Assembly: GCA_944326905.1 (NCBI GenBank)
Contig: CALVFU010000004.1
Location: 16,619-80,618 of the forward strand
Length of the DNA stretch: 64,000 nucleotides
DNA from: Candidatus Gastranaerophilales bacterium
GTDB lineage: Bacteria; Cyanobacteriota; Vampirovibrionia; Gastranaerophilales; Gastranaerophilaceae
Direction of reading: 5' to 3'
Shown: positions 4,099-61,921 of the stretch, in pieces
How positions within the stretch are numbered: the stretch's first letter is position 1
Layout: every line of letters begins with the position of its first letter
Made by a program: the position numbers and the translations under genes
The notes under the pieces: generated by a model
What the model saw: the letters and a program-made list of their open reading frames with translations, nothing else
Databases searched by the model: none
What the model was told of the DNA's origin: nothing

Positions 4099-5694
4099 TT
4101 AAAAGGCGATGTCCTCTGTTTTTATTATGTCTTTTGCCAGCGTATTGTTAAAACTTTCTTCCGAAAGTGTACCTTTAGGATTGATAAAAATGTATCCTTT
4201 GATGACTTCTAAATTTCCTGTATCAGAAAAAAGATAATCCGCTATATCTAAATCTCCGCCAATTTCTTTTAGCTTGCCGAGAGAGTAAACCCCAGCACCA
4301 ATGTAAGTGTCACCTCCAATACTTTCTAAATTGCCTAATGATAGTGAATTGACTGTAAAATTTACATCTCTTCCTATAGATTTTAATTTGCCGAGGGAGG
4401 TTGTGGCAGGATTTAAGTAGAGTGATTTACCAATTTTTTCAATATTGTGTAGGTCTGTAATTAAGGATTTTTCAAAATATGCGCTTCCGCCAATTTCTTT
4501 TAGCGAAGGGATATCTTTTACCATAGAATTATTAAAAATTACATCTCCTTCTACTTTTTCAAGTCCTCCAGTTGATGATATGCATGAATTACACAGATCT
4601 AAATCTCCGCCTATATATTTAACTGCACCAAGATTTACAGCTTTGGAATCCTCAAAATGTGCATTAGTACGGATTTCCTTAACCACCGCTAAAAGACTGT
4701 TTTCGTCAATTCCTAAATCGGAAAAAGAAAAATTCTCAGATGGCTGCCTATATTCTTCGATACTAAGTGAGCCATCTTTTAATTTTTGAGGGTTATATCC
4801 AAGCAGAAAAAATATTTCTTCGGCGTTGTTATTTTTAATAGCGGAATTTAATTGGTCTTTAATTTCCATAAGAAATTTGAATTTGTTTTGTGCTTCTTTA
4901 TATTTGAATGCAGCAGTTCCTGCTAAGTTAAAATGATTATTCTGTATGTAGCTGTTAATTTCATTGAAACACTGGTAATCAATAATTGAATTATTATTTT
5001 CATTTTGAATTTCAATAATAGAGTTTCCTTCAAATTTAAGACAGTATTTTGCTTGTCCGTTTTTTAGATAGAGGTGAAAATCTCCGGCTGAAAGGTAAGA
5101 TTCTGCTCGAGGGCCTTTTGTACACCAAGTTTTAGCGGATAATAACTTTAATTTTTGGAGATTTGTTTCAAAATCATTTGGCGCGTTGAACTGTGACGGA
5201 ATGATTATCCAGCCTGTTTTTGTTTCTTCATTATTTAAAAGTTGTTTTTTTAAAGTATCTGTATACAGCTTGTTAAAATCAAATTGATAATCTTTATCAT
5301 GTTCTAAGTTTGTTTCTAAATGTTTGATTGTTTCCTTGATAGATGTTTCACTAATTATAGGCGGAATTTTATCGGTAGTATTTTTTAAGTCTTTAGTGAT
5401 TGCTGAGAGAATAATAAGGCATATAGAAGGGATAGAGATATTTTTTAAAAGAAAAGCTGTCCATTCTTCTATCATTCCATATCTTTGGATTGTTATTTCG
5501 TCGTCTCTTGCTCGCCAGTTTTGGTTATGAACCCTGGTAAATCTATCCAAAGCCCATTTATTAAAATCACTTATAGAGTTAAATTTTTCAACAGGAGCTT
5601 TGAATTTTCTAATGCATGCATAATCAAACCCTTTGAATTGATTAGGTTTCATTGATGTAAAAGATAAAGGCGTACTGTAGGATTGAATATTCAT
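4099..5694 (-). CDS. Hypothetical protein with C-terminal BspA-type leucine-rich repeats
   Basis: 531-aa ORF with no signal peptide. The C-terminal ~140 aa form about 7 tandem 19-21-aa units of pattern L(K/E)xIGGDxxF....L(G). The N-terminal two thirds are unrecognised. Confidence 0.6.
   Translation of the reverse strand: MNIQSYSTPLSFTSMKPNQFKGFDYACIRKFKAPVEKFNSISDFNKWALDRFTRVHNQNWRARDDEITIQRYGMIEEWTAFLLKNISIPSICLIILSAITKDLKNTTDKIPPIISETSIKETIKHLETNLEHDKDYQFDFNKLYTDTLKKQLLNNEETKTGWIIIPSQFNAPNDFETNLQKLKLLSAKTWCTKGPRAESYLSAGDFHLYLKNGQAKYCLKFEGNSIIEIQNENNNSIIDYQCFNEINSYIQNNHFNLAGTAAFKYKEAQNKFKFLMEIKDQLNSAIKNNNAEEIFFLLGYNPQKLKDGSLSIEEYRQPSENFSFSDLGIDENSLLAVVKEIRTNAHFEDSKAVNLGAVKYIGGDLDLCNSCISSTGGLEKVEGDVIFNNSMVKDIPSLKEIGGSAYFEKSLITDLHNIEKIGKSLYLNPATTSLGKLKSIGRDVNFTVNSLSLGNLESIGGDTYIGAGVYSLGKLKEIGGDLDIADYLFSDTGNLEVIKGYIFINPKGTLSEESFNNTLAKDIIKTEDIAF
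4180..4590 (-). repeat. Coding tandem repeat (about 60-bp periodicity) encoding the LRR units
   Basis: Successive peptide units LEKVEGDVIF / LKEIGGSAYF / IEKIGKSLYL / LKSIGRDVNF / LESIGGDTYI / LKEIGGDLDI / LEVIKGYIFI. Confidence 0.6.
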
Positions 5695-9202: not shown

Positions 9203-9709
9203 ATGAGCAATATTAATTTTAATCTGAATAATGGAAAAGAAGATTTTACTTCGCTAAAGGAGGCTATCTTTAGACGAGCAAGAGAAAAAGCAGAAGCTCT
9301 TAATAATGAAGTAAAGGATAGTTACACTAATGATGTAAAAGCAGATATTATGGAGAGTGCAAGAATTAGTGTGCGTAATAATCCTTTTCTAAATCTCTTA
9401 AATGATAAAATTAATAATGTAGAATCTCCGTCAACAAAAGAAATTGAGAAGCCGGAAATTTCACATTCAAGTGGTATTGAATATAAAAAAACAAGGGTAA
9501 AACAATATCCTTCTAAAATAAATAATCAGCTTTATACTGCGGCTGTTCGTGAAGGAACAATGCGTGAAGCAAGCGAATCTTTAAGGCAAAATCAAAATGT
9601 GCTAAACAGTTTAAAATTTTTAAATACCCAAGCTGCAATAGCTTTAAATAAACCTTTTATAAATAGAGAGATAGAAACGTTAGCACGAGAAATTACATTT
9701 GGAGTATGA
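9203..9709 (+). CDS. Hypothetical protein (168 aa)
   Basis: ORF with an AGAGGA RBS. N/K/E-rich with no recognisable domain. Confidence 0.5.
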   Translation: MSNINFNLNNGKEDFTSLKEAIFRRAREKAEALNNEVKDSYTNDVKADIMESARISVRNNPFLNLLNDKINNVESPSTKEIEKPEISHSSGIEYKKTRVKQYPSKINNQLYTAAVREGTMREASESLRQNQNVLNSLKFLNTQAAIALNKPFINREIETLAREITFGV

Positions 9710-9710
9710 G

Positions 9711-10298
9711 TTAATCTTCAAGCGGCAGATGTGTCATATGTATTGGTGCTGTGAGTACAATGAGTAAATCGGTGCCTGATGCCACAGTTACATGTTCACC
9801 CATTTTACGTGTCGGTCCTGGGCGATATTGGATAACTCCCATAAAATGACGTACTATTCCTTTATGATAATGCGGTACTTTTATGTAGGTTTCAGGCTCT
9901 GTTAATCCGCCGCCAAACAGGTTATTGTTTGCGGTGTATAAGTATCCTTTAACAGGCAGTTTAAAGCCGTCAGGAAGTATCATTGAATTAATGAATATTT
10001 TCATTGATGCGTGGGTACCTATTATTGGTTCGTTTTTCTTTTCAATGTAACCGCTGAATTTTGTTCCGCTCGGGATTATTTTATGTTCATACAGATAAAT
10101 ATCGTTTGTTGATACAAAATTCAGGGTATCTGTTTCATCGTTATATGCGGTAGAAAATTCCTGCAGACTTATAACAGGAATGAAGCTTCCGCTTGGAATG
10201 TCAAACTCGTCGTAATCTTTGATATCTGGAGCCGCCAATGCCGGGATAAGTATAAAAATAAAAAGTATAACAAATGTTAAGATTTTTTTTATAACCAT
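9711..10298 (-). CDS. Hypothetical secreted protein (195 aa)
   Basis: Clear signal peptide (KKILTFVILFIFILIPALAAP). No recognised domain. Confidence 0.55.
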   Translation of the reverse strand: MVIKKILTFVILFIFILIPALAAPDIKDYDEFDIPSGSFIPVISLQEFSTAYNDETDTLNFVSTNDIYLYEHKIIPSGTKFSGYIEKKNEPIIGTHASMKIFINSMILPDGFKLPVKGYLYTANNNLFGGGLTEPETYIKVPHYHKGIVRHFMGVIQYRPGPTRKMGEHVTVASGTDLLIVLTAPIHMTHLPLED

Positions 10299-16370: not shown

Positions 16371-17117
16371 TTATACTTTATTTTCTTTTATAAAGGCAAG
16401 TATTCGAGACAATTTTACTTTTAGAATTTCGCATTCTTCTTTCAGTTTTTGATTTTCAGCCAAAAGGTTAATATCCTGTTCTTCGCCTGCAACTTTTGGG
16501 ATAATTTCATCAGTAAGTACAAATTTCTTGCTTGCTTCTTCTTTTATAAGCATTACGCTTTTCATATCTTTTTCTTTGATGATACCCATTTGCACCATTA
16601 ATTCCGCAATAAAAACGTGCTTGCCCTTTGATTGTAGTTCCTGCTGCCTTGCAAGAACTTTCTCAAGGGCTTCAATAGACATTTTCCCTGCTCTGATAAA
16701 GTATTCCCCTGTTCTGTATTTACCTGCAATAAAGCCGGCAAGGGAGGAAACCAAAACGGGAATGTCTTCTGTAAAATACTTTTGATCCATGCAGAAAGTA
16801 AAAGCTTTTGCCATTTCTTCCATAGAAAATGATCCGGCAAGAGCTATTTCAACTAAATTCATATGATTTTTGCAGCAGGATAAAAATGTATAAATATTAT
16901 CATCCCAGCAGCAGTCTCTATTTTCAAGCTCTTGCTCTCCAATAGCTGACAATGACGGCTGGTAAGTATGGAATAACTCATCCTGCTGTGCGGATATAAA
17001 ATCCTGGCTTAGATATTTTTTTAAATCTGTTGATAAATTTATATAAATTGCTTGTTTTATCCATAGCGGAAACTTATATAAGGCTTCCATAAACTCATTG
17101 TAACTATTTTTACCCAC
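16371..17117 (-). CDS. Hypothetical protein (248 aa) with a GspE-N/MshEN-like helical segment and C-terminal coiled coil
   Basis: YFIRAGKMSIEALEKVLARQQE...FIAELMVQMGIIKEKDMKSVM resembles T2SSE_N-type repeats. The call is tentative. Confidence 0.4.
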   Translation of the reverse strand: MGKNSYNEFMEALYKFPLWIKQAIYINLSTDLKKYLSQDFISAQQDELFHTYQPSLSAIGEQELENRDCCWDDNIYTFLSCCKNHMNLVEIALAGSFSMEEMAKAFTFCMDQKYFTEDIPVLVSSLAGFIAGKYRTGEYFIRAGKMSIEALEKVLARQQELQSKGKHVFIAELMVQMGIIKEKDMKSVMLIKEEASKKFVLTDEIIPKVAGEEQDINLLAENQKLKEECEILKVKLSRILAFIKENKV

Positions 17118-20411: not shown

Positions 20412-21713
20412 TTAAAATTCTGTGACCAAGCTATTTCCAAAATCCCCTTTATATATGAGTGTTTTATATTTTTCATTCTTGTAAACGTAGATTTCAAATG
20501 ATATATCAGGATATGCAATTTTCTTATAATGCTTGCTGCCTGTATGGATTACAGTGATAATAGGAGAGATTTCATTTTGCTTGAGCGGAGCTTTGTCAAA
20601 AAATGTTTTCGTATAGCTCGCACTCAGATGCTTTTTTCTATAAATAAGAATATCCATTTTCATATTTGAAATATTGAAAGATGAAATATTTTTTATTCTG
20701 AATTTTAAAATAAATTTATCATTTTTCTTTGCTGTTTGAATTTTTGACTGTAAGAAGTCAAACTCAATATTATCACTGTTTATAATATTATTTTGATAAA
20801 AATTTTTGATAGAGCCTGCTTTGTAGGTATACAATTTAGAAGACGGGATATCTTCTCTGCTTCTGCATATATCTGCTGTTCTCATAAGTGTTTCATAGTA
20901 AAGATAGAAACTTACAAGCTGTGGTTCTTTGTTTTTTATTATCTCAAAATATTCAACTGCTTTTTGGGGGTTGATATAAGATAAAACCAAGGCAATCTTG
21001 TATTTTACAGTTAAGTTTCCAGGGGCTGATTTCTCAGCCCGTCTTAGGTATCGGTATGCTTCTCTGTAATTTTTTTTAGCGACAAAGTTGTCCGCTATTT
21101 TTACGTTTGAAGCAAGAATACCATTGTTAATATACTCTCTGATTTTAACTTTTCTTACGTTTAGTTTATTGAAATAATACTCCGCAATTTTATATTTTTT
21201 ATTAGCTAAGAGCGGATTGTTATGTTTATAGTAATAATCTGCAATTAAAATATTTGTATTACATTTAAATTTTATAAACCTTTGATTACTGCGGGTTCTG
21301 ATTGAATTTTCAACGCTTTCAGCAAATTCCGGCTTGTTATTTTCTAGATATAGTATAATCAATTTAAGATAATGCTCATATGTTGCATCGGGGGCGAGCT
21401 GTATTGCTCTTTTGTAATAAAATTCTGCTTTTTCAAAATTATCAATAGTTTGATATAATCCTCCGATATAAATATTAAATTTATAATCATCGGAGTACAT
21501 TTTCCCTAAAAATTCTTCTTGAGAAAGAATACTAGCCGTAAATTTTTTATAAAATTTGCTTTTATGTTCTTTTGTTATATACAATTTATCTTCAATTGAT
21601 AGACGGGCATTAATAATAATGCCTGTTACGGTAAAAACAGCCAGTAAAAAGGCTGTAAAAAAAGTTGTAAGGTATTTTATTTTAAAAATATCAAACTTTT
21701 TGAACTTAATCAT
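20412..21713 (-). CDS. Membrane-anchored TPR-repeat protein
   Basis: One N-terminal TM helix (YLTTFFTAFLLAVFTVTGIII), then TPR-like repeats (FEKAEFYYKRAIQLAPD...). The start was chosen at the internal Met (MIKFKK). Confidence 0.55.
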   Translation of the reverse strand: MIKFKKFDIFKIKYLTTFFTAFLLAVFTVTGIIINARLSIEDKLYITKEHKSKFYKKFTASILSQEEFLGKMYSDDYKFNIYIGGLYQTIDNFEKAEFYYKRAIQLAPDATYEHYLKLIILYLENNKPEFAESVENSIRTRSNQRFIKFKCNTNILIADYYYKHNNPLLANKKYKIAEYYFNKLNVRKVKIREYINNGILASNVKIADNFVAKKNYREAYRYLRRAEKSAPGNLTVKYKIALVLSYINPQKAVEYFEIIKNKEPQLVSFYLYYETLMRTADICRSREDIPSSKLYTYKAGSIKNFYQNNIINSDNIEFDFLQSKIQTAKKNDKFILKFRIKNISSFNISNMKMDILIYRKKHLSASYTKTFFDKAPLKQNEISPIITVIHTGSKHYKKIAYPDISFEIYVYKNEKYKTLIYKGDFGNSLVTEF

Positions 21714-22428
21714 TAACCTCCAGTATAGCTGCAGATTCAATATTACAAAAACGTTTTAAATCCTCATACAGAGATGTTAATTTGTCTTTTTTAGGAATTT
21801 CAACTGTTGCAGTAAGTTTTATTTTTTGTTCTTGAAAATTTGTATGTTTAACGGAAAAATTAACAACATCAAATTTTTTATCAAAAAATTCTCTAATTGC
21901 AGCTTCATCATTGATTGAACAGTAAAGAGTTATATTGTATCGTCTCATAGCCCTGGCCCCGGAGGGAAGAAATTCTTTTTCAAAAATCCGAATAAGTGTA
22001 AGAACGGCGACTGCAAAAATAGTAGTAGCAAGCCCAACCATAAAAAGTCCAGCACCGCAAGCCATGCCAATAGCGGCTGCAATCCATAGAGTTGCAGCGG
22101 TTGTAAGACCAAATATCATAGGACCATTACGGAGGACGGCGCCGGCACCGATAAAACCTATTCCTGAAACTATTTGTGCCGCAACCCGTCCAGTATCTCT
22201 TATTCCGTTTGCGTAATCATCTGTTAGAACGGTTGGAAAGCCATATATTGAAATTATTGTAAATATACACGCTCCCAGACATACAAGTATATGAGTTCTT
22301 AATCCTGCATACTTATTTGTTAGTTCTCGTTCTAATCCTAGAATAAAGCCATAGCAAACAGCAGCGAATATTCTTAAAATTATGTTGTAATCAAAAATAT
22401 TTTCAACTATTCCATGTCCAGACAGCAT
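21706..22428 (-). CDS. MgtC/SapB family membrane protein
   Basis: LGLERE....AGLRTHILVCLGA motif, four to five TM helices and a C-terminal soluble ACT-like domain. 240 aa. Confidence 0.8.
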   Translation of the reverse strand: MLSGHGIVENIFDYNIILRIFAAVCYGFILGLERELTNKYAGLRTHILVCLGACIFTIISIYGFPTVLTDDYANGIRDTGRVAAQIVSGIGFIGAGAVLRNGPMIFGLTTAATLWIAAAIGMACGAGLFMVGLATTIFAVAVLTLIRIFEKEFLPSGARAMRRYNITLYCSINDEAAIREFFDKKFDVVNFSVKHTNFQEQKIKLTATVEIPKKDKLTSLYEDLKRFCNIESAAILEVND

Positions 22429-31361: not shown

Positions 31362-33011
31362 ATGTCTGAACAAGTATTGGTAAACCCCGTTGATAAAGAG
31401 CAGGATGCAATTGATGCATTAGAAAAAGCACGTGTATATCATGAAAAATATCTTATAAAACAGCAGGAGAAAGACTTAGAAAACGCAATTTCTTTGTATG
31501 TGGATACAATTAAACTGAATCCGGGGATACCAGAAGCGTATTACCGTCTTGCAAGTTTGTTATATGAAAAAGGACAGATTACTGTAAATGGGGCTATAGA
31601 ACAGTGCAGGACTGCATTAACTCTTTCGCCGGACAATGCAAATGCGCACATTTATACTGGATATTTCCTTGGAATTGCTGGTGAATATGAAGCCGCGGCA
31701 GAAGAGTTCCATATTGCAATAAAAAAATCAGGAATGAATTCAGCACGTCCGAGGTTGTTCCTTTCTAAAATAATTATGGAACAAATGCGGAATAAACAAA
31801 AAAATATTGCTTCAATGGCGCAGTTTTTGTATTATTTCCTTTCCGGCAGTCTCATGATTATATGGGATTATCCTACACTTAAAATGTTATACAAATATTT
31901 GGCGGATGATTTTTCTGTATTTTCATTCAAGACACTAGGTTCCACGTGTGCAAAAATGCGAATGATACCCTCTGCTTTGGATATTTATTCAAGAGGAGCG
32001 GAAAAAACAGAGCATGGTGATGTTTTTTATCAGCGTATGGGTGATTTATCGCTGGAATGCGATGATATGATTACTTGTCTTGAATGCTACAGACGAGCGC
32101 TGGAAACATCTCCTGATAACAGAGAAATAATGATTAAGCTTGCTACTATTATTCAAACTTATTTTCCTGACGAAATTGATGAAGCAATTGATTATTATAA
32201 TAAACTGCTTGAATTCGGGATTGACAATGACAAAATTTATTATGAATTAGGTCATTTGTACTTAAAAAAAGAGGACAGACTGCATGCTGCGACTGCGTTT
32301 AAACTGGCAGTTGATTTAGACCCTGAAAATCCATACTATAACAATTCGCTTGCGTTTGCCTATATTAAGTGCGAACTTTATGATGATGCAATAGAGTGTT
32401 ATCAAAAGGCTATAAAAATCAATCCTGATGCCAAGTGGACAGCTATTGTCTGCCATGCTTTGGGTTCAATATATGGAGAAATTCATGGTAACTTTGAAGC
32501 TGCAGAAGCTACTTTTCAAGCTGCTATAGCTCTTGATCCTGAGAATGTTGATGTCCAATTATCTCTTGGTGACCTGTATATGGCAAAAGGTGACATTGAC
32601 GGGGCTATTAAGATTTACTGTGATACTATTGCTATTGATGGCGAAAACTATTTGAGCTACTCAAAAGTCGGGCTTGCTCTGTGGGAAAAAGATTATTTAG
32701 AGGAGTCTCTTGTTGCTTTCCATAAAGCGATCGATTTAAACCCAGAGTTTGATATAGCGCAAAATAATATTGGTGTGGTTTATTTAGACGGTTTTGGAGA
32801 TGCAAAATCTGCAATGGAATATTTTGAAACAGCGTGTTCTCTAAATCCGAATTACACTTTAGCACACTTTAATGCGGGACGCGCTGCGCAGGCTTTGAAT
32901 AAAAAATCATTAGCAGCGGAGTATTACCAGCAGGCAATGAATCTTAATAAACTTACAAATGATTTGGAAGAAAAGGATATTAGAGAGCGATTATACGATT
33001 TGTTTAATTAA
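31362..33011 (+). CDS. TPR-repeat protein (paralogue of 49948..51537)
   Basis: Many TPR units (e.g. AYYRLASLLYEKGQ, YYELGHLYLKKEDRLHAATAFKLAVDLDPEN). Start taken at MSEQ with a GGAG RBS. Confidence 0.65.
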   Translation: MSEQVLVNPVDKEQDAIDALEKARVYHEKYLIKQQEKDLENAISLYVDTIKLNPGIPEAYYRLASLLYEKGQITVNGAIEQCRTALTLSPDNANAHIYTGYFLGIAGEYEAAAEEFHIAIKKSGMNSARPRLFLSKIIMEQMRNKQKNIASMAQFLYYFLSGSLMIIWDYPTLKMLYKYLADDFSVFSFKTLGSTCAKMRMIPSALDIYSRGAEKTEHGDVFYQRMGDLSLECDDMITCLECYRRALETSPDNREIMIKLATIIQTYFPDEIDEAIDYYNKLLEFGIDNDKIYYELGHLYLKKEDRLHAATAFKLAVDLDPENPYYNNSLAFAYIKCELYDDAIECYQKAIKINPDAKWTAIVCHALGSIYGEIHGNFEAAEATFQAAIALDPENVDVQLSLGDLYMAKGDIDGAIKIYCDTIAIDGENYLSYSKVGLALWEKDYLEESLVAFHKAIDLNPEFDIAQNNIGVVYLDGFGDAKSAMEYFETACSLNPNYTLAHFNAGRAAQALNKKSLAAEYYQQAMNLNKLTNDLEEKDIRERLYDLFN

Positions 33012-34243
33012 ACAATTTGTACTTCCTCTTCTTCAATCGGATTTTCAGGCAGTTCCATTTCTAACGCAGAGGTTCCTTCTTCTATATTAAGTTCAGCCAT
33101 AGCGAGTAATGTATCTGTCCCTGCTCCGATATTGCCTATATTGGTATTTATTTCAGGCAAGCTATTTTGTACCCCGTTGAATTTATTTGTATAATCAGAG
33201 CCAAATCCTTGAATTACTCCGGCAACTAATTGAGCAGTACTGGTTCCTGCTGTTCCTGTTGTAATATATCCTTGTCCGACGGCTGTATCAAGTCCGCTCA
33301 TTGCGGTTCCAATAATTGGAAGAACACTTTTAGCAGATGCCATAGCAAGTATTCGTTCTCCAGTTAAGGTTTGATTTAATGAATTGCTGCGTAAAGTTGC
33401 TGTTTCTTGTGCAGCTGCACCTGTGTGTGATACAACACTGTTATTTGTAGTAACAACAGTATTATCAAGATTGTCTTGAGTTTCTGTTGTTGTTACTGCA
33501 AGCTGTTGCTGTAATTGTCCTGCCCATGCTTGAGATTGATTTGCTTTATAAATTTCTTGAGAAATTGAGTCTGCGCTTTCTATAATGTTTGTATGAAGTT
33601 CATTTATAACAGGTGCATAAGTTGCACAAATTTCATTTGCTGCTGCAAGCTGTTTTTGTAATTTTTCTTTTTCTGTTTCATCAGTTGTGCTGTTTAATTT
33701 TGCTTCAAGTTCATCTCTTCTTGCTTTTTCTGTTTCAAAAGTTTCAATTTGTTGTTGTATCAATTCAATATTTTCAAGTAAAGCTTCTTTTTTAGCAGCG
33801 ACAATCTCTGTACTTTCTTCAATTATTTTTATTTGTTCATCAAGATCTGCTTTGTATCCGTCAATTTTGCCGGCAGCTTCATTAATTATACCTTCTGCTT
33901 GAACTACGCCTTGTTGTGCGGCATCTTCTGCTGCTTTATTTTCTTTATTAATTTTTACTTCAGATGCTTTATTTTTGGCTTTTTCACCAGCTAAAGAAAG
34001 TCCGTTTGTAATAGCTCCGCCGACCGCGCTAAAAATGGAATTCATAGCCATAGATGCTGCTTGCATTCCCATACTTGATGCACTTTGACCCATTGCATCC
34101 CAGAAATTTCCGCCTTGGAAAATACAATTTATGAAATTTGAGCCGGCAGCTCCGAACGGGTTATTGCCGAGACTGCTGCCCATAGAGCTGCTGATTGAGT
34201 TTCCAAAAGTATTCAAATTAAATTTCAGTTCTGGCGCAGTCAT
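33008..34243 (-). CDS. Hypothetical coiled-coil protein with Gly/Ser/Ala/Met-rich termini
   Basis: 411-aa ORF. Residues ~90-215 are strongly heptad/charged (KIDGYKADLDEQIKIIEESTEIVAAKKEALLENIELIQQQIETFETEKARRDELEAKL). Both ends are small-residue rich and the tail is acidic. Confidence 0.55.
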   Translation of the reverse strand: MTAPELKFNLNTFGNSISSSMGSSLGNNPFGAAGSNFINCIFQGGNFWDAMGQSASSMGMQAASMAMNSIFSAVGGAITNGLSLAGEKAKNKASEVKINKENKAAEDAAQQGVVQAEGIINEAAGKIDGYKADLDEQIKIIEESTEIVAAKKEALLENIELIQQQIETFETEKARRDELEAKLNSTTDETEKEKLQKQLAAANEICATYAPVINELHTNIIESADSISQEIYKANQSQAWAGQLQQQLAVTTTETQDNLDNTVVTTNNSVVSHTGAAAQETATLRSNSLNQTLTGERILAMASAKSVLPIIGTAMSGLDTAVGQGYITTGTAGTSTAQLVAGVIQGFGSDYTNKFNGVQNSLPEINTNIGNIGAGTDTLLAMAELNIEEGTSALEMELPENPIEEEEVQIV

Positions 34244-57368: not shown

Positions 57369-57839
57369 TTATTTGCTTCTGAATTTTGGTGCTGGACAAT
57401 TTTTTTTGAATGCCCACCAGTTTAATGCTCCGCCATATGCATCTTCGCTATTTTGAAGTAATTGGTTTACGTTAGAAAATATTTCTTTTATACTTTTTGA
57501 TTGACCTATTTTTTTTAAAGAGAAGTCGTTAGATGTTCGTAAATGAAATTCCAGCCGGAGACAAGACTCTATTTCTTGTAAGGCAGCATGTATAAGTAAA
57601 ATTTTATCGGCTTTTGAATGTTTAGAAAGTAATGTTCGAACTTCTCCCAGCGGCGGAACATTTGATATTGTTATAATTAACTCAGCATTATTCTTGTACC
57701 ACTCTTTATACTCTTCATAAGTGAATTTTTCCATACGTTTTTTTAGGTTTTTTATATCCTTATTGGTAAACAGTTGAATAAGTATTTCGCTTCGCTGCTT
57801 CTTTTTCCTGATAGTTTCACTTGGAGGGTTGATATCCAA
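57369..57839 (-). CDS. Hypothetical protein (156 aa)
   Basis: ORF co-oriented between kpsF and queD. Basic, helical, no recognised domain. Confidence 0.45.
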   Translation of the reverse strand: MDINPPSETIRKKKQRSEILIQLFTNKDIKNLKKRMEKFTYEEYKEWYKNNAELIITISNVPPLGEVRTLLSKHSKADKILLIHAALQEIESCLRLEFHLRTSNDFSLKKIGQSKSIKEIFSNVNQLLQNSEDAYGGALNWWAFKKNCPAPKFRSK

Positions 57840-58915: not shown

Positions 58916-59014
58916 ACGAACTCCTTAAATATATTTTTATTTTACCATAATATTTTAATGAATGATATTTAGGAATATTTTGCTTTTAAACCTGTTACAA
59001 ATTACTTATTTAAA

Positions 59015-59030
59015 TCCGACAGCGGGACTT
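59015..59030 (-). repeat. Partial copy of the tRNA-Leu 3' end (15/16 nt)
   Basis: Plus-strand CCGACAGCGGGACTTG here versus CCGACGGCGGGACTTG at 59215..59230, exactly 200 bp apart and in direct orientation. Confidence 0.6.
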
Positions 59031-59183
59031 GTCTTGGTCTGTTCGCAATAGACGTGTCTACGGATTTTGCAGCAAAGAATTATATTCTTTTTGCAAAAGG
59101 TCTCCGCACTCTGCTCACAGACCGCTGAACCCAAGAAATGCTTTGCATTGGGGTTCTGCGTCCTCTTGTCGTTAATGGGCAAT

Positions 59184-59210
59184 AAAAAAGAGCCTGTTAA
59201 GCTCCTTTTT
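59184..59210 (-). terminator. Intrinsic terminator after tRNA-Leu
   Basis: Minus strand AAGGAGC-UUAACAG-GCUCUUU followed by a U-run. Modest stem. Confidence 0.5.
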
Positions 59211-59212
59211 AT

Positions 59213-59294
59213 TGCCGACGGCGGGACTTGAACCCGCAAGGATTTCTCCACACGCATCTGAAACGTGCATGTTTACCGATTTCATCACGTCGGC
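59213..59294 (-). tRNA. tRNA-Leu (anticodon CAG), class II with long variable arm
   Basis: Hand-folded from the reverse complement: acceptor GCCGACG/CGTCGGC, 3-bp D-stem AUG/CAU, anticodon stem CACGU/GCGUG with loop UUCAGAU, variable stem GGA-GAAA-UCC, T-arm GCGGG-UUCAAGU-CCCGC, discriminator A. No encoded CCA. Confidence 0.9.
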
Positions 59295-59310
59295 ACACAC
59301 TCTTACTATA

Positions 59311-60516
59311 CTATATGATTTCATCCATATTTTCAAGTAAATTATTTGTACCGTTGTTTACTATATTTCCTTCTGCTTTCGCCTTATTTTCTATTTTCTT
59401 GTTACCGGCTTCTTTCCCTGCTGCTTCGCTATTCTTGTTGCGTGAAGTTCGAGAGGCTTTTGAAACTTTTGTAGCTCCGCTGTTTTTTGCGTCTTTTGCA
59501 GCTTTTGCTGCTATTTCTTCACATTCTTTCATTTTTTTATATAAAAAGTTAAAATCCAGCTCTCTGTTTGGAATAATCCACGGCAGAGGTAAAAAGTCAG
59601 GTTCTGTTCGGTTTTGTAGTTCCTTTAAAGTAACATTTTTTCGTTTTCTTTGGTGTAGATAAGCATTTCTTGTATATTCCTTAAAGGCGTTCTTTAATAC
59701 ATCGTTGCCTTCTTCTTGGAGCGGTTTTAGATATTTCATCATAGACATATATTTCTTTTGTATAGGCTTGCTACACCGTATTTTATATGTTAAATCTTCA
59801 ACATCCTTTAATTCGGCAATATCTGCACCCATGATTTGAATTTCAGCATAGCTTTCTCCGTACTTGCTTGGTGGAAATTTTATGGTTAAGTGTATTGCAT
59901 TATACCCCATAGGATGCTCTTCGCTTACAACACGTATAGGTCCCACCATCTTTTCACAGGCTTTCTTTAACGGTTGTAATTGCTTTGGCGTAACATAGGA
60001 TAACCTTGGATCTCCATAAAAGTTTTCAATTTCTATTATTGAAAGTTCTCCTTTTAACACCATATCTTCAAACTTTTTAAGGATAGTTTCTATACTTTGT
60101 TTTGATGTATCTCTTAAGATTAATCTTCCTCCGATTATGTCTTGGATTTGTTGAGATAGTTCTGTATAGTTCTTAACCTCTCTTGCTCCGCCTTTTTCAG
60201 CTATAGACTCAGGTGATTTAATTCTTGCTTTGATTTTATAAATAGGTCTATCTGGATAATTGTCAGTTGCCTTCATGGCGTTAAAAGCGCTTTCCAGCTT
60301 CTTTTGAAACATTTGAAAGGCTTTTGCAAGTGTTTTGTTTACGTCCATTCCCATTTGTTTTGATAATCTAGCCTCATTTTTAAGCTGTTTTGCTCCTACA
60401 CCGAATGATACAGTGTCGCGTTCTAATGGCTTAAGGTTGGAATAGTTATTGTTTATAAGGGGGGTGTTAGTTTGTCTTTTAAAATTAAATAAATTCGGAG
60501 TAATTGTTAAATTCAT
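59311..60516 (-). CDS. RelA/SpoT-homologue, synthetase-only small RSH (SAS/toxSAS-like) with N- and C-terminal extensions
   Basis: Ordered RelA_SpoT motifs: YKIKARIKSPESIAEK, IQDIIGGRLILRD, HPMGYNAIHLTIKF, YAEIQIMG...VEDLTYKIR. No HD hydrolase, TGS or ACT regions. Lys/Ala/Ser-rich C-terminal tail. Confidence 0.75.
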   Translation of the reverse strand: MNLTITPNLFNFKRQTNTPLINNNYSNLKPLERDTVSFGVGAKQLKNEARLSKQMGMDVNKTLAKAFQMFQKKLESAFNAMKATDNYPDRPIYKIKARIKSPESIAEKGGAREVKNYTELSQQIQDIIGGRLILRDTSKQSIETILKKFEDMVLKGELSIIEIENFYGDPRLSYVTPKQLQPLKKACEKMVGPIRVVSEEHPMGYNAIHLTIKFPPSKYGESYAEIQIMGADIAELKDVEDLTYKIRCSKPIQKKYMSMMKYLKPLQEEGNDVLKNAFKEYTRNAYLHQRKRKNVTLKELQNRTEPDFLPLPWIIPNRELDFNFLYKKMKECEEIAAKAAKDAKNSGATKVSKASRTSRNKNSEAAGKEAGNKKIENKAKAEGNIVNNGTNNLLENMDEII

Positions 60517-60667
60517 ATTTTACCTTCTGTTCTTTTTATTTTCCATTTCGTATAAAATATGTAAATAAAAAAATTTGCTTTGTAAATAACTAAATTATGA
60601 TTATTCTTAATATAAATTTACAAATTAAAACTTTTTTGTTAGTATTTAGTCACAGAGGTAAAGGGAT

Positions 60668-61921
60668 ATGGATTTTAAGGAAATTGCAAAATCAGCTAAA
60701 AAGGCGTCATTTGAACTTGCTAATGCTAGCGAAGAGATTAAGAATAGAGTTTTGTCGGCCGCTGCTAAAGGATTGGAGCAGAATTCTAAAATGATTTTTG
60801 AGGCAAATATAAAAGATTTGGATGCGGCTAAAGAACTTGTATCAACAGGTGAAATTACTCCATCTGTGTATAAACGATTAAAACTAGATGAAAATAAATT
60901 AAGAGATATGATACAAGGAATTAGAGATTTAATAAAACTCCCGGATCCTGTGAACAAAACACTATTGAGACGTCAGCTTGATAAAGGAATTATACTGGAA
61001 AAGATATCTTGTCCAATTGGGGTTCTTGGTATTATATTTGAAGCCCGTCCTGATGTTATTGCGCAAGTTTCAGCACTTGCTGTAAAATCAGGTAATGCGG
61101 TAATATTAAAGGGTGGTAAAGAGGCTGTTAATACTAATAAAATTCTTTTTGATATTATCAAAAAAGCAGCGTCTGAAGTTGAAGGTTTTCTGCCTGATGC
61201 CTTGCAGCAGATATTTACCAGAGAAGATGTCTCAGAAATGCTTAAATGTGACGGGCTTGTTGATTTAATTATCCCAAGGGGCGGTAATAAGCTTGTCCAA
61301 TTTATCAAAAGTAATACTAAAATACCTGTACTAGGTCACGCGGATGGAGTCTGCCATATTTTTGTGGATGAGTCTGCTGATTTAGAAATGGCAGTAAAAA
61401 TAATTGTAGACGCTAAAACACAGTACCCAAGTGCATGTAATTCTGTGGAAACTCTTATTGTACATAAAGACTTTCCTTATGCACCGGCATTGAGGGATAC
61501 ATTGATTGATTCTGGAATTGATATTGTTGATAATCCGCAGGAATGGCATCATGAATACTCTGATACAACTTTAAGTTATTTAATTGTGCCGGATATTGAT
61601 ACTGCAATTAATCATATTAATACTTACGGGTCTGGGCACACTGATGCTATCATTACAAATGACAAGCAGAATGCAGATAAATTTATAAGTCTTGTTGATT
61701 CTGCCGGCGTATACCATAATGTATCAACAAGGTTTGCTGATGGGTTCCGCTATGGTTTTGGTGCAGAAGTTGGTATTTCTACTAATAAAACACATGCACG
61801 CGGTCCTGTTGGTCTTGAAGGGCTTACCATATATAAATATAATATTAGAGGCAATGGTGATATTGTAAGCGATTATGCAGACGGAACAAAACAGTTTCAT
61901 CATAAGGACTTAGAAATATGA
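60668..61921 (+). CDS. proA: Gamma-glutamyl phosphate reductase
   Basis: 417 aa of the aldehyde dehydrogenase fold, with the catalytic Cys in PSACNSVETLIVH and the conserved GHTDAIIT and VYHNVSTRFADG blocks. Confidence 0.93.
   Translation: MDFKEIAKSAKKASFELANASEEIKNRVLSAAAKGLEQNSKMIFEANIKDLDAAKELVSTGEITPSVYKRLKLDENKLRDMIQGIRDLIKLPDPVNKTLLRRQLDKGIILEKISCPIGVLGIIFEARPDVIAQVSALAVKSGNAVILKGGKEAVNTNKILFDIIKKAASEVEGFLPDALQQIFTREDVSEMLKCDGLVDLIIPRGGNKLVQFIKSNTKIPVLGHADGVCHIFVDESADLEMAVKIIVDAKTQYPSACNSVETLIVHKDFPYAPALRDTLIDSGIDIVDNPQEWHHEYSDTTLSYLIVPDIDTAINHINTYGSGHTDAIITNDKQNADKFISLVDSAGVYHNVSTRFADGFRYGFGAEVGISTNKTHARGPVGLEGLTIYKYNIRGNGDIVSDYADGTKQFHHKDLEI

Follow-up and report, generated by a model that had tools for sequence, protein, structure and literature searches.

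Exported alarmone synthetases (EASs; mBio 2025) are orphan small alarmone synthetases (SASs) that come without immunity genes and are toxic only if they are kept in the cytosol (PMC12691689). Early substrates of flagellar type III export carry a hydrophobic extreme N-terminus, a linker of at least 19 and optimally 24–30 residues, and a docking motif at residues 36–40 (PMC8983047). Gastranaerophilales genomes hold full or partial flagellar gene sets (PMC5877343). We analysed a gene of the RelA/SpoT homologue (RSH) class in a 64,000-nucleotide stretch of a Candidatus Gastranaerophilales bacterium (assembly GCA_944326905.1, contig CALVFU010000004.1, positions 16,619 to 80,618 of the forward strand; hereafter the window). 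It encodes a 401-residue protein in which a SAS core is preceded by a leader peptide that recurs on unrelated proteins. Our best explanation, which we put forward tentatively, is that the gene encodes an orphan, intact SAS-type pyrophosphokinase that may be routed by a lineage-specific, non-Sec sorting or export leader.

A preliminary description of this DNA had suggested that the gene could encode a fused, self-regulated toxic SAS (toxSAS) serving as a stress or anti-phage module, or else a new RSH subfamily coupled to a tRNA gene. The modularity of the leader, which was absent from that description, points to sorting or export rather than to a fused antitoxin. Gastranaerophilales are common and largely uncultured in human and animal guts, and their stress sensing and interactions with neighbours are almost unstudied. 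RelA/SpoT synthetases form a large family private to them, mostly unnamed in current annotation, and a portable N-terminal peptide ties these synthetases to many unrelated, unannotated proteins.

The synthetase core and its extensions

The gene is a complete open reading frame (ORF), the parts of which are listed in Table 1. An AAGG sequence resembling a Shine-Dalgarno (SD) site stands 5–8 nt ahead of the ATG, which supports a start of translation at Met1 and hence a translated leader. The frame opens merely 1–4 codons 5' of Met1 in all orthologues. The anatomy of the protein was defined from alignments of 32 and 146 family members and from two AlphaFold2 (AF2) models. The better model, with a predicted local distance difference test score (pLDDT) of 85.1 and a predicted TM-score (pTM) of 0.78, comprises a single globular domain plus helices.

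As the preliminary description stated, the 401-residue ORF carries the synthetase motifs in order: KARIKSPESIAEK (residues 96–108), DIIGGRLIL (126–134), PMGYNAIHLTI (202–212), YAEIQIMG (223–230) and DLTYKIR (241–247). It also proposed a search with the RelA_SpoT model (PF04607) and saw no HD, TGS or ACT region. In Pfam, RelA_SpoT matched residues 98–233 at 30.9 bits (E 3.5e-7; curated cutoff 27), and it was the sole domain found, with no HD, TGS or ACT domain. In the 146 sequences K100, K108, D126, Y205, H209, E225, K237 and K245 were invariant and R98, S104, Q227, G230, D241 and Y244 at least 90% conserved; the conserved core residues also include G129 and R131 of DxxGxR and G204 of GYxxxH. 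All the catalytic motifs (RxKxxxSxxxK, DxxGxR, GYxxxH, ExQ and YK) were kept across 32–146 family members, and the catalytic residues are thus not degenerate. From Rel, RelQ and RelP structures we take RxKxxxSxxxK to bind the ATP phosphates, the Asp of DxxGxR to bind Mg2+, the Tyr of GYxxxH to stack on the base and the Glu of ExQ to be catalytic. Because these ATP- and Mg2+-binding, base-stacking and catalytic residues are conserved, the core appears catalytically intact and the enzyme is very probably active. Candidate acceptors are GDP/GTP, ADP/ATP and the 3' end of a tRNA.

The regions on either side of the core had been described as private extensions of this protein. That holds for the tail (about residues 346–401), which is lineage-specific, and not for the leader or residues 250–345, which are family-wide. 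The helical extension is recognised by K250, Y256, Y281-TRxAYxxQR, FLxIPxxxPxELDFN and a conserved Cys334, and in the models it is predicted to pack on the synthetase core. No Foldseek match covered it (residues 251–345) and it has no counterpart in solved SAS structures. The basic tail varies in sequence and length even among close relatives, and in most members it is absent or has few basic residues. Judged by these alignments it is a dispensable, lineage-specific add-on, and the best account of it is that the ORF has recently grown into A-rich DNA 5' of the adjacent tRNA gene.

Comparison with known enzymes placed the protein near the synthetase-only RSHs. Against the PDB, the family profile found RelP (6fgk, E 1.5e-10) and RelQ-type chains, and no others. 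Foldseek also returned RelP and RelQ first (about 1e-6; TM-score 0.46–0.65 on the target; 16–21% identity), followed at lower rank by CapRel (7ztb, 5e-5) and SaEAS (8vx3, about 6e-5), then FaRel2 (3e-3), then SpoT/Rel. Phage RelA/SpoT-domain proteins were returned from BFVD at similar significance. A single-sequence phmmer comparison with RelP reached E 0.02 only, and NCBIfam, a library assumed to hold models of RelQ/RelP-type SASs, gave no relevant match at E ≤ 1. On sequence and fold comparison, the protein is a bona fide SAS; as far as tested it lies outside the RelQ/RelP families, and it has no specific affinity to a characterised toxSAS.

This ranking bears on the possibility of a self-inhibited toxSAS of the CapRel type, in which a fused C-terminal sensor would control pyrophosphorylation of tRNA 3' ends and hence abortive infection by phage. 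Such an enzyme would suit an orphan gene lacking a separate antitoxin, and the extension of about 95 residues is predicted to be well folded; CapRel is among the Foldseek matches, the basic tail could bind RNA, and the family is fast-evolving and expanded. We nevertheless regard this as improbable. CapRel ranks below RelP and RelQ, its TM-score normalised to CapRel length being 0.34–0.38 as compared with 0.46–0.65 for the synthetase-only chains, and a match to the CapRel C-terminal domain, beyond the shared core, could not be shown with Foldseek. The basic tail is variable and missing from most members. PADLOC gave 0 hits, no relatives of the family were found in 2.9 million viral contigs, and about 20 related loci offered no defence-island or mobile context and retained chromosomal synteny. 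The closer match of RelP and RelQ by profile and fold, together with the housekeeping synteny and the lack of PADLOC hits and viral copies, argues against the fused anti-phage module that had been suggested.

The family itself is large. Close relatives formed 31 clusters among 5.8 billion proteins, none of them carrying a name. A profile search of 1.84 billion representatives at 50% identity gave 905, 465 and 208 matches at E ≤ 1e-3, 1e-10 and 1e-30, respectively; nearly all of the top 150 aligned over profile positions 1–350 and were 330–520 residues long. The full architecture appears to be common to at least 208 clusters at 50% identity. Average-linkage clustering divided the family into about 11 groups below 34% identity, with the window protein in a group of 13 representatives. 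A genome scan made with the 14 closest sequences, which recovered clade-A loci only, yielded five loci: three in Candidatus Gastranaerophilales/Gastranaerophilaceae metagenome-assembled genomes (MAGs), one in an unclassified bacterium and one in a genome labelled Muribaculaceae. The GC content of all loci was 0.22–0.40. We conclude that this is a large, previously unnamed low-GC family; where its hits fall in named genomes, most of these are Gastranaerophilales (non-photosynthetic Melainabacteria). By its sequence it constitutes a new and sizeable RSH subfamily, in which both the leader and the helical extension added to a known SAS core are new.

The modular N-terminal leader

The leader of the window protein ends in the motif NLKPLERDTVSFG. 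The consensus from the 166 members with a recognisable N-terminus is [Y][PS]NLAPLxxDTVSF[GST], with the Asp at a median of about residue 39. D34 and F38 are present in every motif-bearing N-terminus, both being required by the search pattern. A sub-variant was also seen (P0025, P0053, P0071, P0092, P0134 and others), in which xFGL[KR]M[AST]xPL replaces YPNLAPL before DTVSF. Relative to the protein bodies, the leaders are depleted of Asp (0.15-fold) and Glu (0.13-fold) and enriched in Asn (threefold) and Phe (twofold), while a non-polar residue occupies position 3 in 72% of leaders and position 5 in 64%. Because the longest hydrophobic run is mostly 2–4 residues, with no Sec-type hydrophobic core, the leader is, to judge from its composition, not a Sec or Tat signal peptide.

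Wherever the N-terminus was present, the motif lay 22–41 residues from the initiator Met. Every synonymous codon occurs in it, Leu being encoded by five different codons and Ser by both of its codon families. This free choice of codons, the SD at Met1 and a frame kept despite variable linkers indicate translation of the leader and selection on the peptide. We reject the idea of a conserved but untranslated DNA or RNA element in view of the SD, the codon usage and the retention of the frame in more than 200 sequences. The leader is thus best described as a modular peptide under protein-level selection, as far as sequence comparison can tell.

Modularity emerged from several comparisons. When the related loci (numbered L001 onwards) were scanned with the RSH profile hidden Markov model (HMM), a weak match was obtained in L010 to a protein with a non-RSH body, starting MKILPFVFNNQYYNNRKQCKNPYLQPLKQDTVNFTAMKK…, about 7 kb from an RSH paralogue. 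The relatives of this protein make up a second, unannotated family (family 2; 69 clusters, P0193–P0261), which starts FxAMKKSQFxGxD…KFKAPIEKFN. Its domain is marked by KFKAPIEKFN, PPVLN, WCTKS and GDFHIY and an invariant Cys, and is often followed C-terminally by leucine-rich repeats (LRRs) of the BspA type, as typically found in secreted or surface proteins. The full leader is found in 24 of the 69 members, and a shortened [SN]FxAMKK in many others. An HMM derived from the RSH leaders matched a family-2 member at 7e-12, and hhalign of the RSH family against family 2 aligned the leader only (36 columns, E 4.8e-5). Similarly, a 451-residue protein (L031) aligned with the RSH family over the leader only (42 columns, E 9e-9); its body had looked RSH-like by eye, as had that of the L029 cargo, and we claim neither as an RSH. 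In a NagA-like amidohydrolase (L053) the leader replaces the first 50 or so residues of NagA. The gene for this protein lies outside a nag operon, next to YebC-like, amylase-like, TetR and TolC-like genes.

A back-translated NLAPLxxDTVSF pattern was then scanned against 241 million metagenome records and found 38 loci, whereas by our own estimate chance would yield about 4. About 13 of the 38 were RSH genes and 3 belonged to family 2, the remainder having other bodies; in viral contigs the pattern found no locus. Leader genes are dispersed singletons in low-GC contigs. Family 2 had no significant Pfam or PDB match, and the other cargos had essentially none. On sequence evidence the leader appears common to at least six other kinds of protein, among them WCTKS/LRR, NagA-like and HNH-like proteins (Table 1). 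In one leader-bearing family, a GxGxxA…YK stretch recalls the glycine loop of kinases.

We could not match the leader to a known signal, and no paper that we found mentions the motif. To our knowledge it fits none of the double-glycine/PCAT leaders, encapsulin targeting peptides or Prp-type cleavage sites. The one PDB match to the motif was an artefact, in which the tobacco etch virus (TEV)-site tag ENLYFQGMKK of 3tyk was aligned to DTVSFGAMKK. That alignment does show the motif to look like a linear site for a protease or for recognition, with small residues after it.

We suggest that the leader serves as a sorting signal specific to this lineage, and that Sec-independent export is its most likely purpose. 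The enzyme would then act outside the cytosol of its producer, where a potentially growth-arresting synthetase would need no antitoxin or hydrolase partner. Export is favoured because the N-terminal position, disorder, fixed distance from the N-terminus and acid depletion of the leader resemble those of translocation signals, and because the leader also stands on LRR proteins whose type is mostly found outside the cell. Export would, in addition, explain the orphan status of the gene, which is the pattern of EASs (PMC12691689). By analogy, the layout mirrors that of the early flagellar type III substrate signal (PMC8983047), and one orthologue has fliO, a gene of flagellar export, 8 kb away. 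A broader proposal is possible but rather doubtful: that the leader is the address label of an undescribed sorting or secretion route in gut Melainabacteria, conceivably through the flagellar-type gate that many of these genomes retain in part, with dozens of effector-like cargos per genome and the RSH subfamilies as a major cargo class. On that proposal, alarmone or nucleotide-pyrophosphate chemistry would be delivered outside the producing cell. Were the leader to direct sorting or export, one simple rule on sequence would suffice to list every cargo of an unknown pathway in a phylum that has been little studied.

Several observations weigh against export. No secretion machinery was seen linked to leader genes. 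The flagellar link is an analogy of geometry and composition, and the motif is unlike FxxxPhi. AF2 with a deeper multiple sequence alignment gave the leader a pLDDT of 54–67, a model in which it may dock weakly onto its own core. Some cargos look cytoplasmic (NagA-like, nucleotide-using), and the leader could be an intracellular partner binder or a degron. The stable positions beside housekeeping genes would fit an ordinary cytoplasmic regulator just as well.

The lack of linked machinery, the cytoplasmic-looking cargos and the possible docking of the leader would also suit a cytoplasmic SAS with a housekeeping or stress role, its leader being a hub-tethering motif, a degron or an autoinhibitory peptide. 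Vertical synteny in core-gene neighbourhoods, and RelP and RelQ as the nearest solved relatives, themselves non-toxic housekeeping SASs, add to the case for it. We consider such an enzyme the main rival, possible if somewhat unlikely. It would be unusual for a housekeeping SAS to be split into about 11 subfamilies (identity below 34%) that occupy several genomic positions, and a RelQ/RelP-type enzyme might have been expected to match NCBIfam. The leader is shared with BspA-LRR-type proteins, which are normally extracellular, and its acid depletion and fixed motif distance are typical of translocation signals and not of internal interaction motifs.

A released, bacteriocin-like toxin is very unlikely. 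The TonB-box consensus is D/E-T-hydrophobic-x-V, and DTVSF could be read as such a box in a colicin-style translocation N-terminus carrying varied cytotoxic domains (RSH, HNH-like). The leader composition fits, as does the presence of a modular, disordered D-T-V-x-hydrophobic segment on varied enzymatic bodies, one of them weakly HNH-like. However, there are no adjacent immunity or lysis genes and no evident receptor-binding domain, and the genes occupy stable core-genome positions.

Genomic context and the tRNA-Leu neighbour

The preliminary description saw a 150-bp gap upstream of the gene and then a divergent proA; the gap to proA (60668..61921) measured 151 bp. It saw no small neighbour that could serve as antitoxin or hydrolase, and we likewise found no plausible partner ORF in the window, the overlapping ORFs all being antisense and inside the gene. 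In L004, L005, L012 and L013 (orthologues 64%, 45% and 51% identical) the gene is again divergent from proA, in the company of the prephenate dehydrogenase and TPR genes; retention of this synteny down to 45% identity indicates vertical inheritance in a housekeeping neighbourhood. Other members of the family lie elsewhere. In another subfamily, from a very common gut species, the RSH gene belongs to a same-strand run of ABC ATPase, lptFG, NAGPA, RSH, PC4 and priA. In L006 and L010 it stands between pyruvate:ferredoxin oxidoreductase (PFOR) genes and a convergent TRAM/tRNA-U5 methyltransferase gene, of which L008 shares the methyltransferase only. Neither PFOR, TRAM methyltransferase, lptFG nor priA was found within the window. 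No conserved small neighbour, hydrolase, defence or mobile-element gene was present in about 20 distinct related loci. The lack of defence, phage or partner context, taken with the conserved synteny, counts against a toxin–antitoxin or abortive-infection module. We conclude that the gene stands as an orphan within housekeeping loci that are themselves conserved.

The convergent arrangement of RSH with the TRAM/tRNA-(uracil-5)-methyltransferase-family gene, seen in two other RSH subfamilies, spans L006:9266-11612, L008:8596-11226 and L010:8001-10341, and the 3' ends overlap in L006 and L010. This methyltransferase, a second and independent RNA-related neighbour, may reflect plain synteny.

On the other side of the gene, tRNA-Leu(CAG) follows on the same strand, as had been described; it begins 15 nt after the stop codon rather than the 16 nt given. 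There is no terminator-like hairpin between the two, and the sole such hairpin, with its T-run, was found after the tRNA as claimed. A functional unit can be envisaged here, in which RSH and tRNA-Leu(CAG) would be co-transcribed and the enzyme would act on or sense that tRNA. The short same-strand gap, the lack of an intervening terminator and the persistence of the linkage in four related MAGs speak for such a unit, but we judge it highly improbable. The adjacency is present in the window and in four relatives at least 64% identical; it is absent from the orthologous loci at 45% and 51% identity, in which proA synteny is kept, and from 11 other family loci. The identity of the tRNA sequence among the linked genomes is expected of any tRNA.

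In addition, the tRNA appears to have its own promoter. In the aligned junctions a conserved TTGAAA/TTGCAA is separated by a 17-nt spacer from TAGTAT/TAAGAT, and the site ends about 13 nt short of the 5' end of the mature tRNA. The promoter-like site overlaps the last 8 codons of the ORF (LENMDEII) and its stop codon. Some co-transcription by read-through may occur, although no sign of a functional link was seen. In L004 the ORF stops earlier (…LLEN, then stop), and the -10 region is nonetheless conserved as non-coding DNA. Because the tRNA promoter overlaps the end of the ORF, the ENMDEII/NFDEIV C-terminus is best explained as DNA-level conservation of that promoter and not as a protein motif. 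Of the proposal of a new RSH subfamily coupled to a tRNA gene, the subfamily is supported; the functional coupling is not, given a clade-specific adjacency and a promoter-like site belonging to the tRNA. The placement of the tRNA gene next to RSH appears coincidental. Both the apparent RSH–tRNA coupling and the conserved acidic C-terminus would be by-products of promoter overlap, a trap for context-based prediction of function.

Right after the tRNA-Leu terminator, four genomes share a conserved block of about 50 nt (CGACAAGAGGACGnAGAACCCC..UGCnnAGCAGUUU..GGUUCAGCGG). In the window, the 181-nt region after the terminator folds unusually stably (-58 kcal/mol, z = -4.85) and ends with an 83% copy of the tRNA-Leu 3' end (59009-59031 as compared with 59208-59230). 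The region gave no Rfam match at E ≤ 10; beyond the conserved nucleotides, which hold one hairpin with negligible covariation, it is variable. Possible identities for the block are a small RNA, the 5' leader of kdsD, or a remnant derived from a tRNA or an att-like scar.

The window as a whole is ordinary core chromosome with 34% GC. Its genes include those for AcrB/TolC, RecO, a PilT-like ATPase, EF-Tu, the glycine cleavage system, AtpD, YchF, Opp permeases and ProRS, as well as FtsZ, GyrA, RseP, UppP, QueD, KdsD, ProA and prephenate dehydrogenase. Seven sizeable ORFs had no Pfam match at the thresholds used, and none of them carries the leader motif.

Table 1. Features of the window gene, its surroundings and leader-bearing genes at related loci. 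Positions without a locus prefix are those of the window.
Feature	Position	Strand	Basis or remarks
Complete ORF, 401 aa + stop: leader, SAS core, helical extension, basic tail	59311..60516	minus	ATG start
SD-like AGAAGG/AAGG directly 5' of ATG	60521..60527	minus	sequence
N-terminal leader, residues 1-47: hydrophobic start MNLTITPNLF, acid-free Asn/Thr-rich linker, then motif	60376..60516	minus	HMM, hhalign, AF2 (disordered/low confidence)
Core leader motif N27-LKPLERDTVSF-G39	60400..60438	minus	family consensus
RelA/SpoT synthetase (SAS) core, residues 50-250	59767..60369	minus	Pfam, PDB profile, 146-sequence alignment, AF2 pLDDT >93, Foldseek RelP/RelQ
Family-wide C-terminal helical extension, residues 251-345	59482..59766	minus	alignments, AF2 pLDDT 93-98
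Lys/Ala/Ser-rich basic tail, residues 346-401	59314..59481	minus	alignment columns 620-690; pLDDT <55 (disordered)
Sigma-70-like tRNA-Leu promoter: -35 TTGAAA 59336-59331, 17-nt spacer, -10 TAGTAT 59313-59308	59308..59336	minus	sequence scan; kept in L001-L004
tRNA-Leu(CAG), syntenic neighbour	59212..59295	minus	ARAGORN + Rfam (54.8 bits)
Terminator hairpin + T-run after tRNA, inverted repeat 59178-59193/59201-59216	59178..59216	minus	compensatory changes in L001-L003
Post-terminator conserved block	59000-59172; L001:7333-7390, L002:7345-7400, L003:7323-7380	minus (window)	
Family 2 loci	L010:1-760 (minus), L017:10001-10783, L021:10001-11287, L022, L025, L051		
Leader-bearing family, ~337 aa	L023, L034, L038, L044, L056		
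Leader-bearing protein, 505 aa	L029, L032		
Leader-bearing protein, 451 aa	L031, L047		
Coiled-coil protein, 638 aa, weakly HNH-like	L030:2443-4377	plus	CxxC…H…CxxC-N motifs, then ~400-residue coiled coil
Further leader-bearing proteins	L040 (308 aa), L048 (178 aa)		
NagA-like amidohydrolase	L053:1864-3057	plus	B. subtilis NagA 2vhl E 3e-27, HxH kept
ORFs without Pfam match	4099-5694, 20412-21740, 33008-34243, 57369-57839, 9711-10298, 16371-17117	minus	
ORF without Pfam match	9203-9709	plus	

Comparison with known systems

With RelP and RelQ (6fgk, 6fgj, 6ewz, 5ded, 5dec) the protein shares a single synthetase domain, the fold and all catalytic motifs. It differs from them in being about twice the size, through the addition of a 45-residue leader, a 95-residue extension and a basic tail, and in belonging to a family that is confined to a low-GC Gastranaerophilales-like lineage and has expanded there into many subfamilies. 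With CapRel (7ztb, 9erv) and FaRel2 (8pu4) it has the RSH synthetase core in common, and with CapRel also a single polypeptide that bears a C-terminal add-on and lacks a separate antitoxin. In contrast to those enzymes, which rank below RelP and RelQ, it comes without a PADLOC hit, a phage or defence context or a toxin–antitoxin operon.

The leader recalls the FlgD-type flagellar signal (eLife 2022, PMC8983047) in its small hydrophobic residues at positions 3–5, its acid-free linker of about 25–30 residues and its motif at about residue 39; both are disordered segments that need no hydrophobic core. The likeness is one of layout only, since PLxxDTVSF stands here in place of the FxxxPhi gate-recognition motif of Salmonella and the cargos of the leader are not flagellar proteins.

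EASs (SaEAS 8vx3; PMC12691689) have recognised signals (a Sec signal peptide, LXG/WXG, XopAD and others), whereas the leader described here has no hydrophobic core, and no Pfam export domain was matched in the window protein. The two are alike in being orphan SASs at isolated loci, with an N-terminal extension and no immunity or antitoxin gene. If the leader is indeed a sorting or export signal, exported alarmone synthetases would extend to a new lineage and to a new type of signal.

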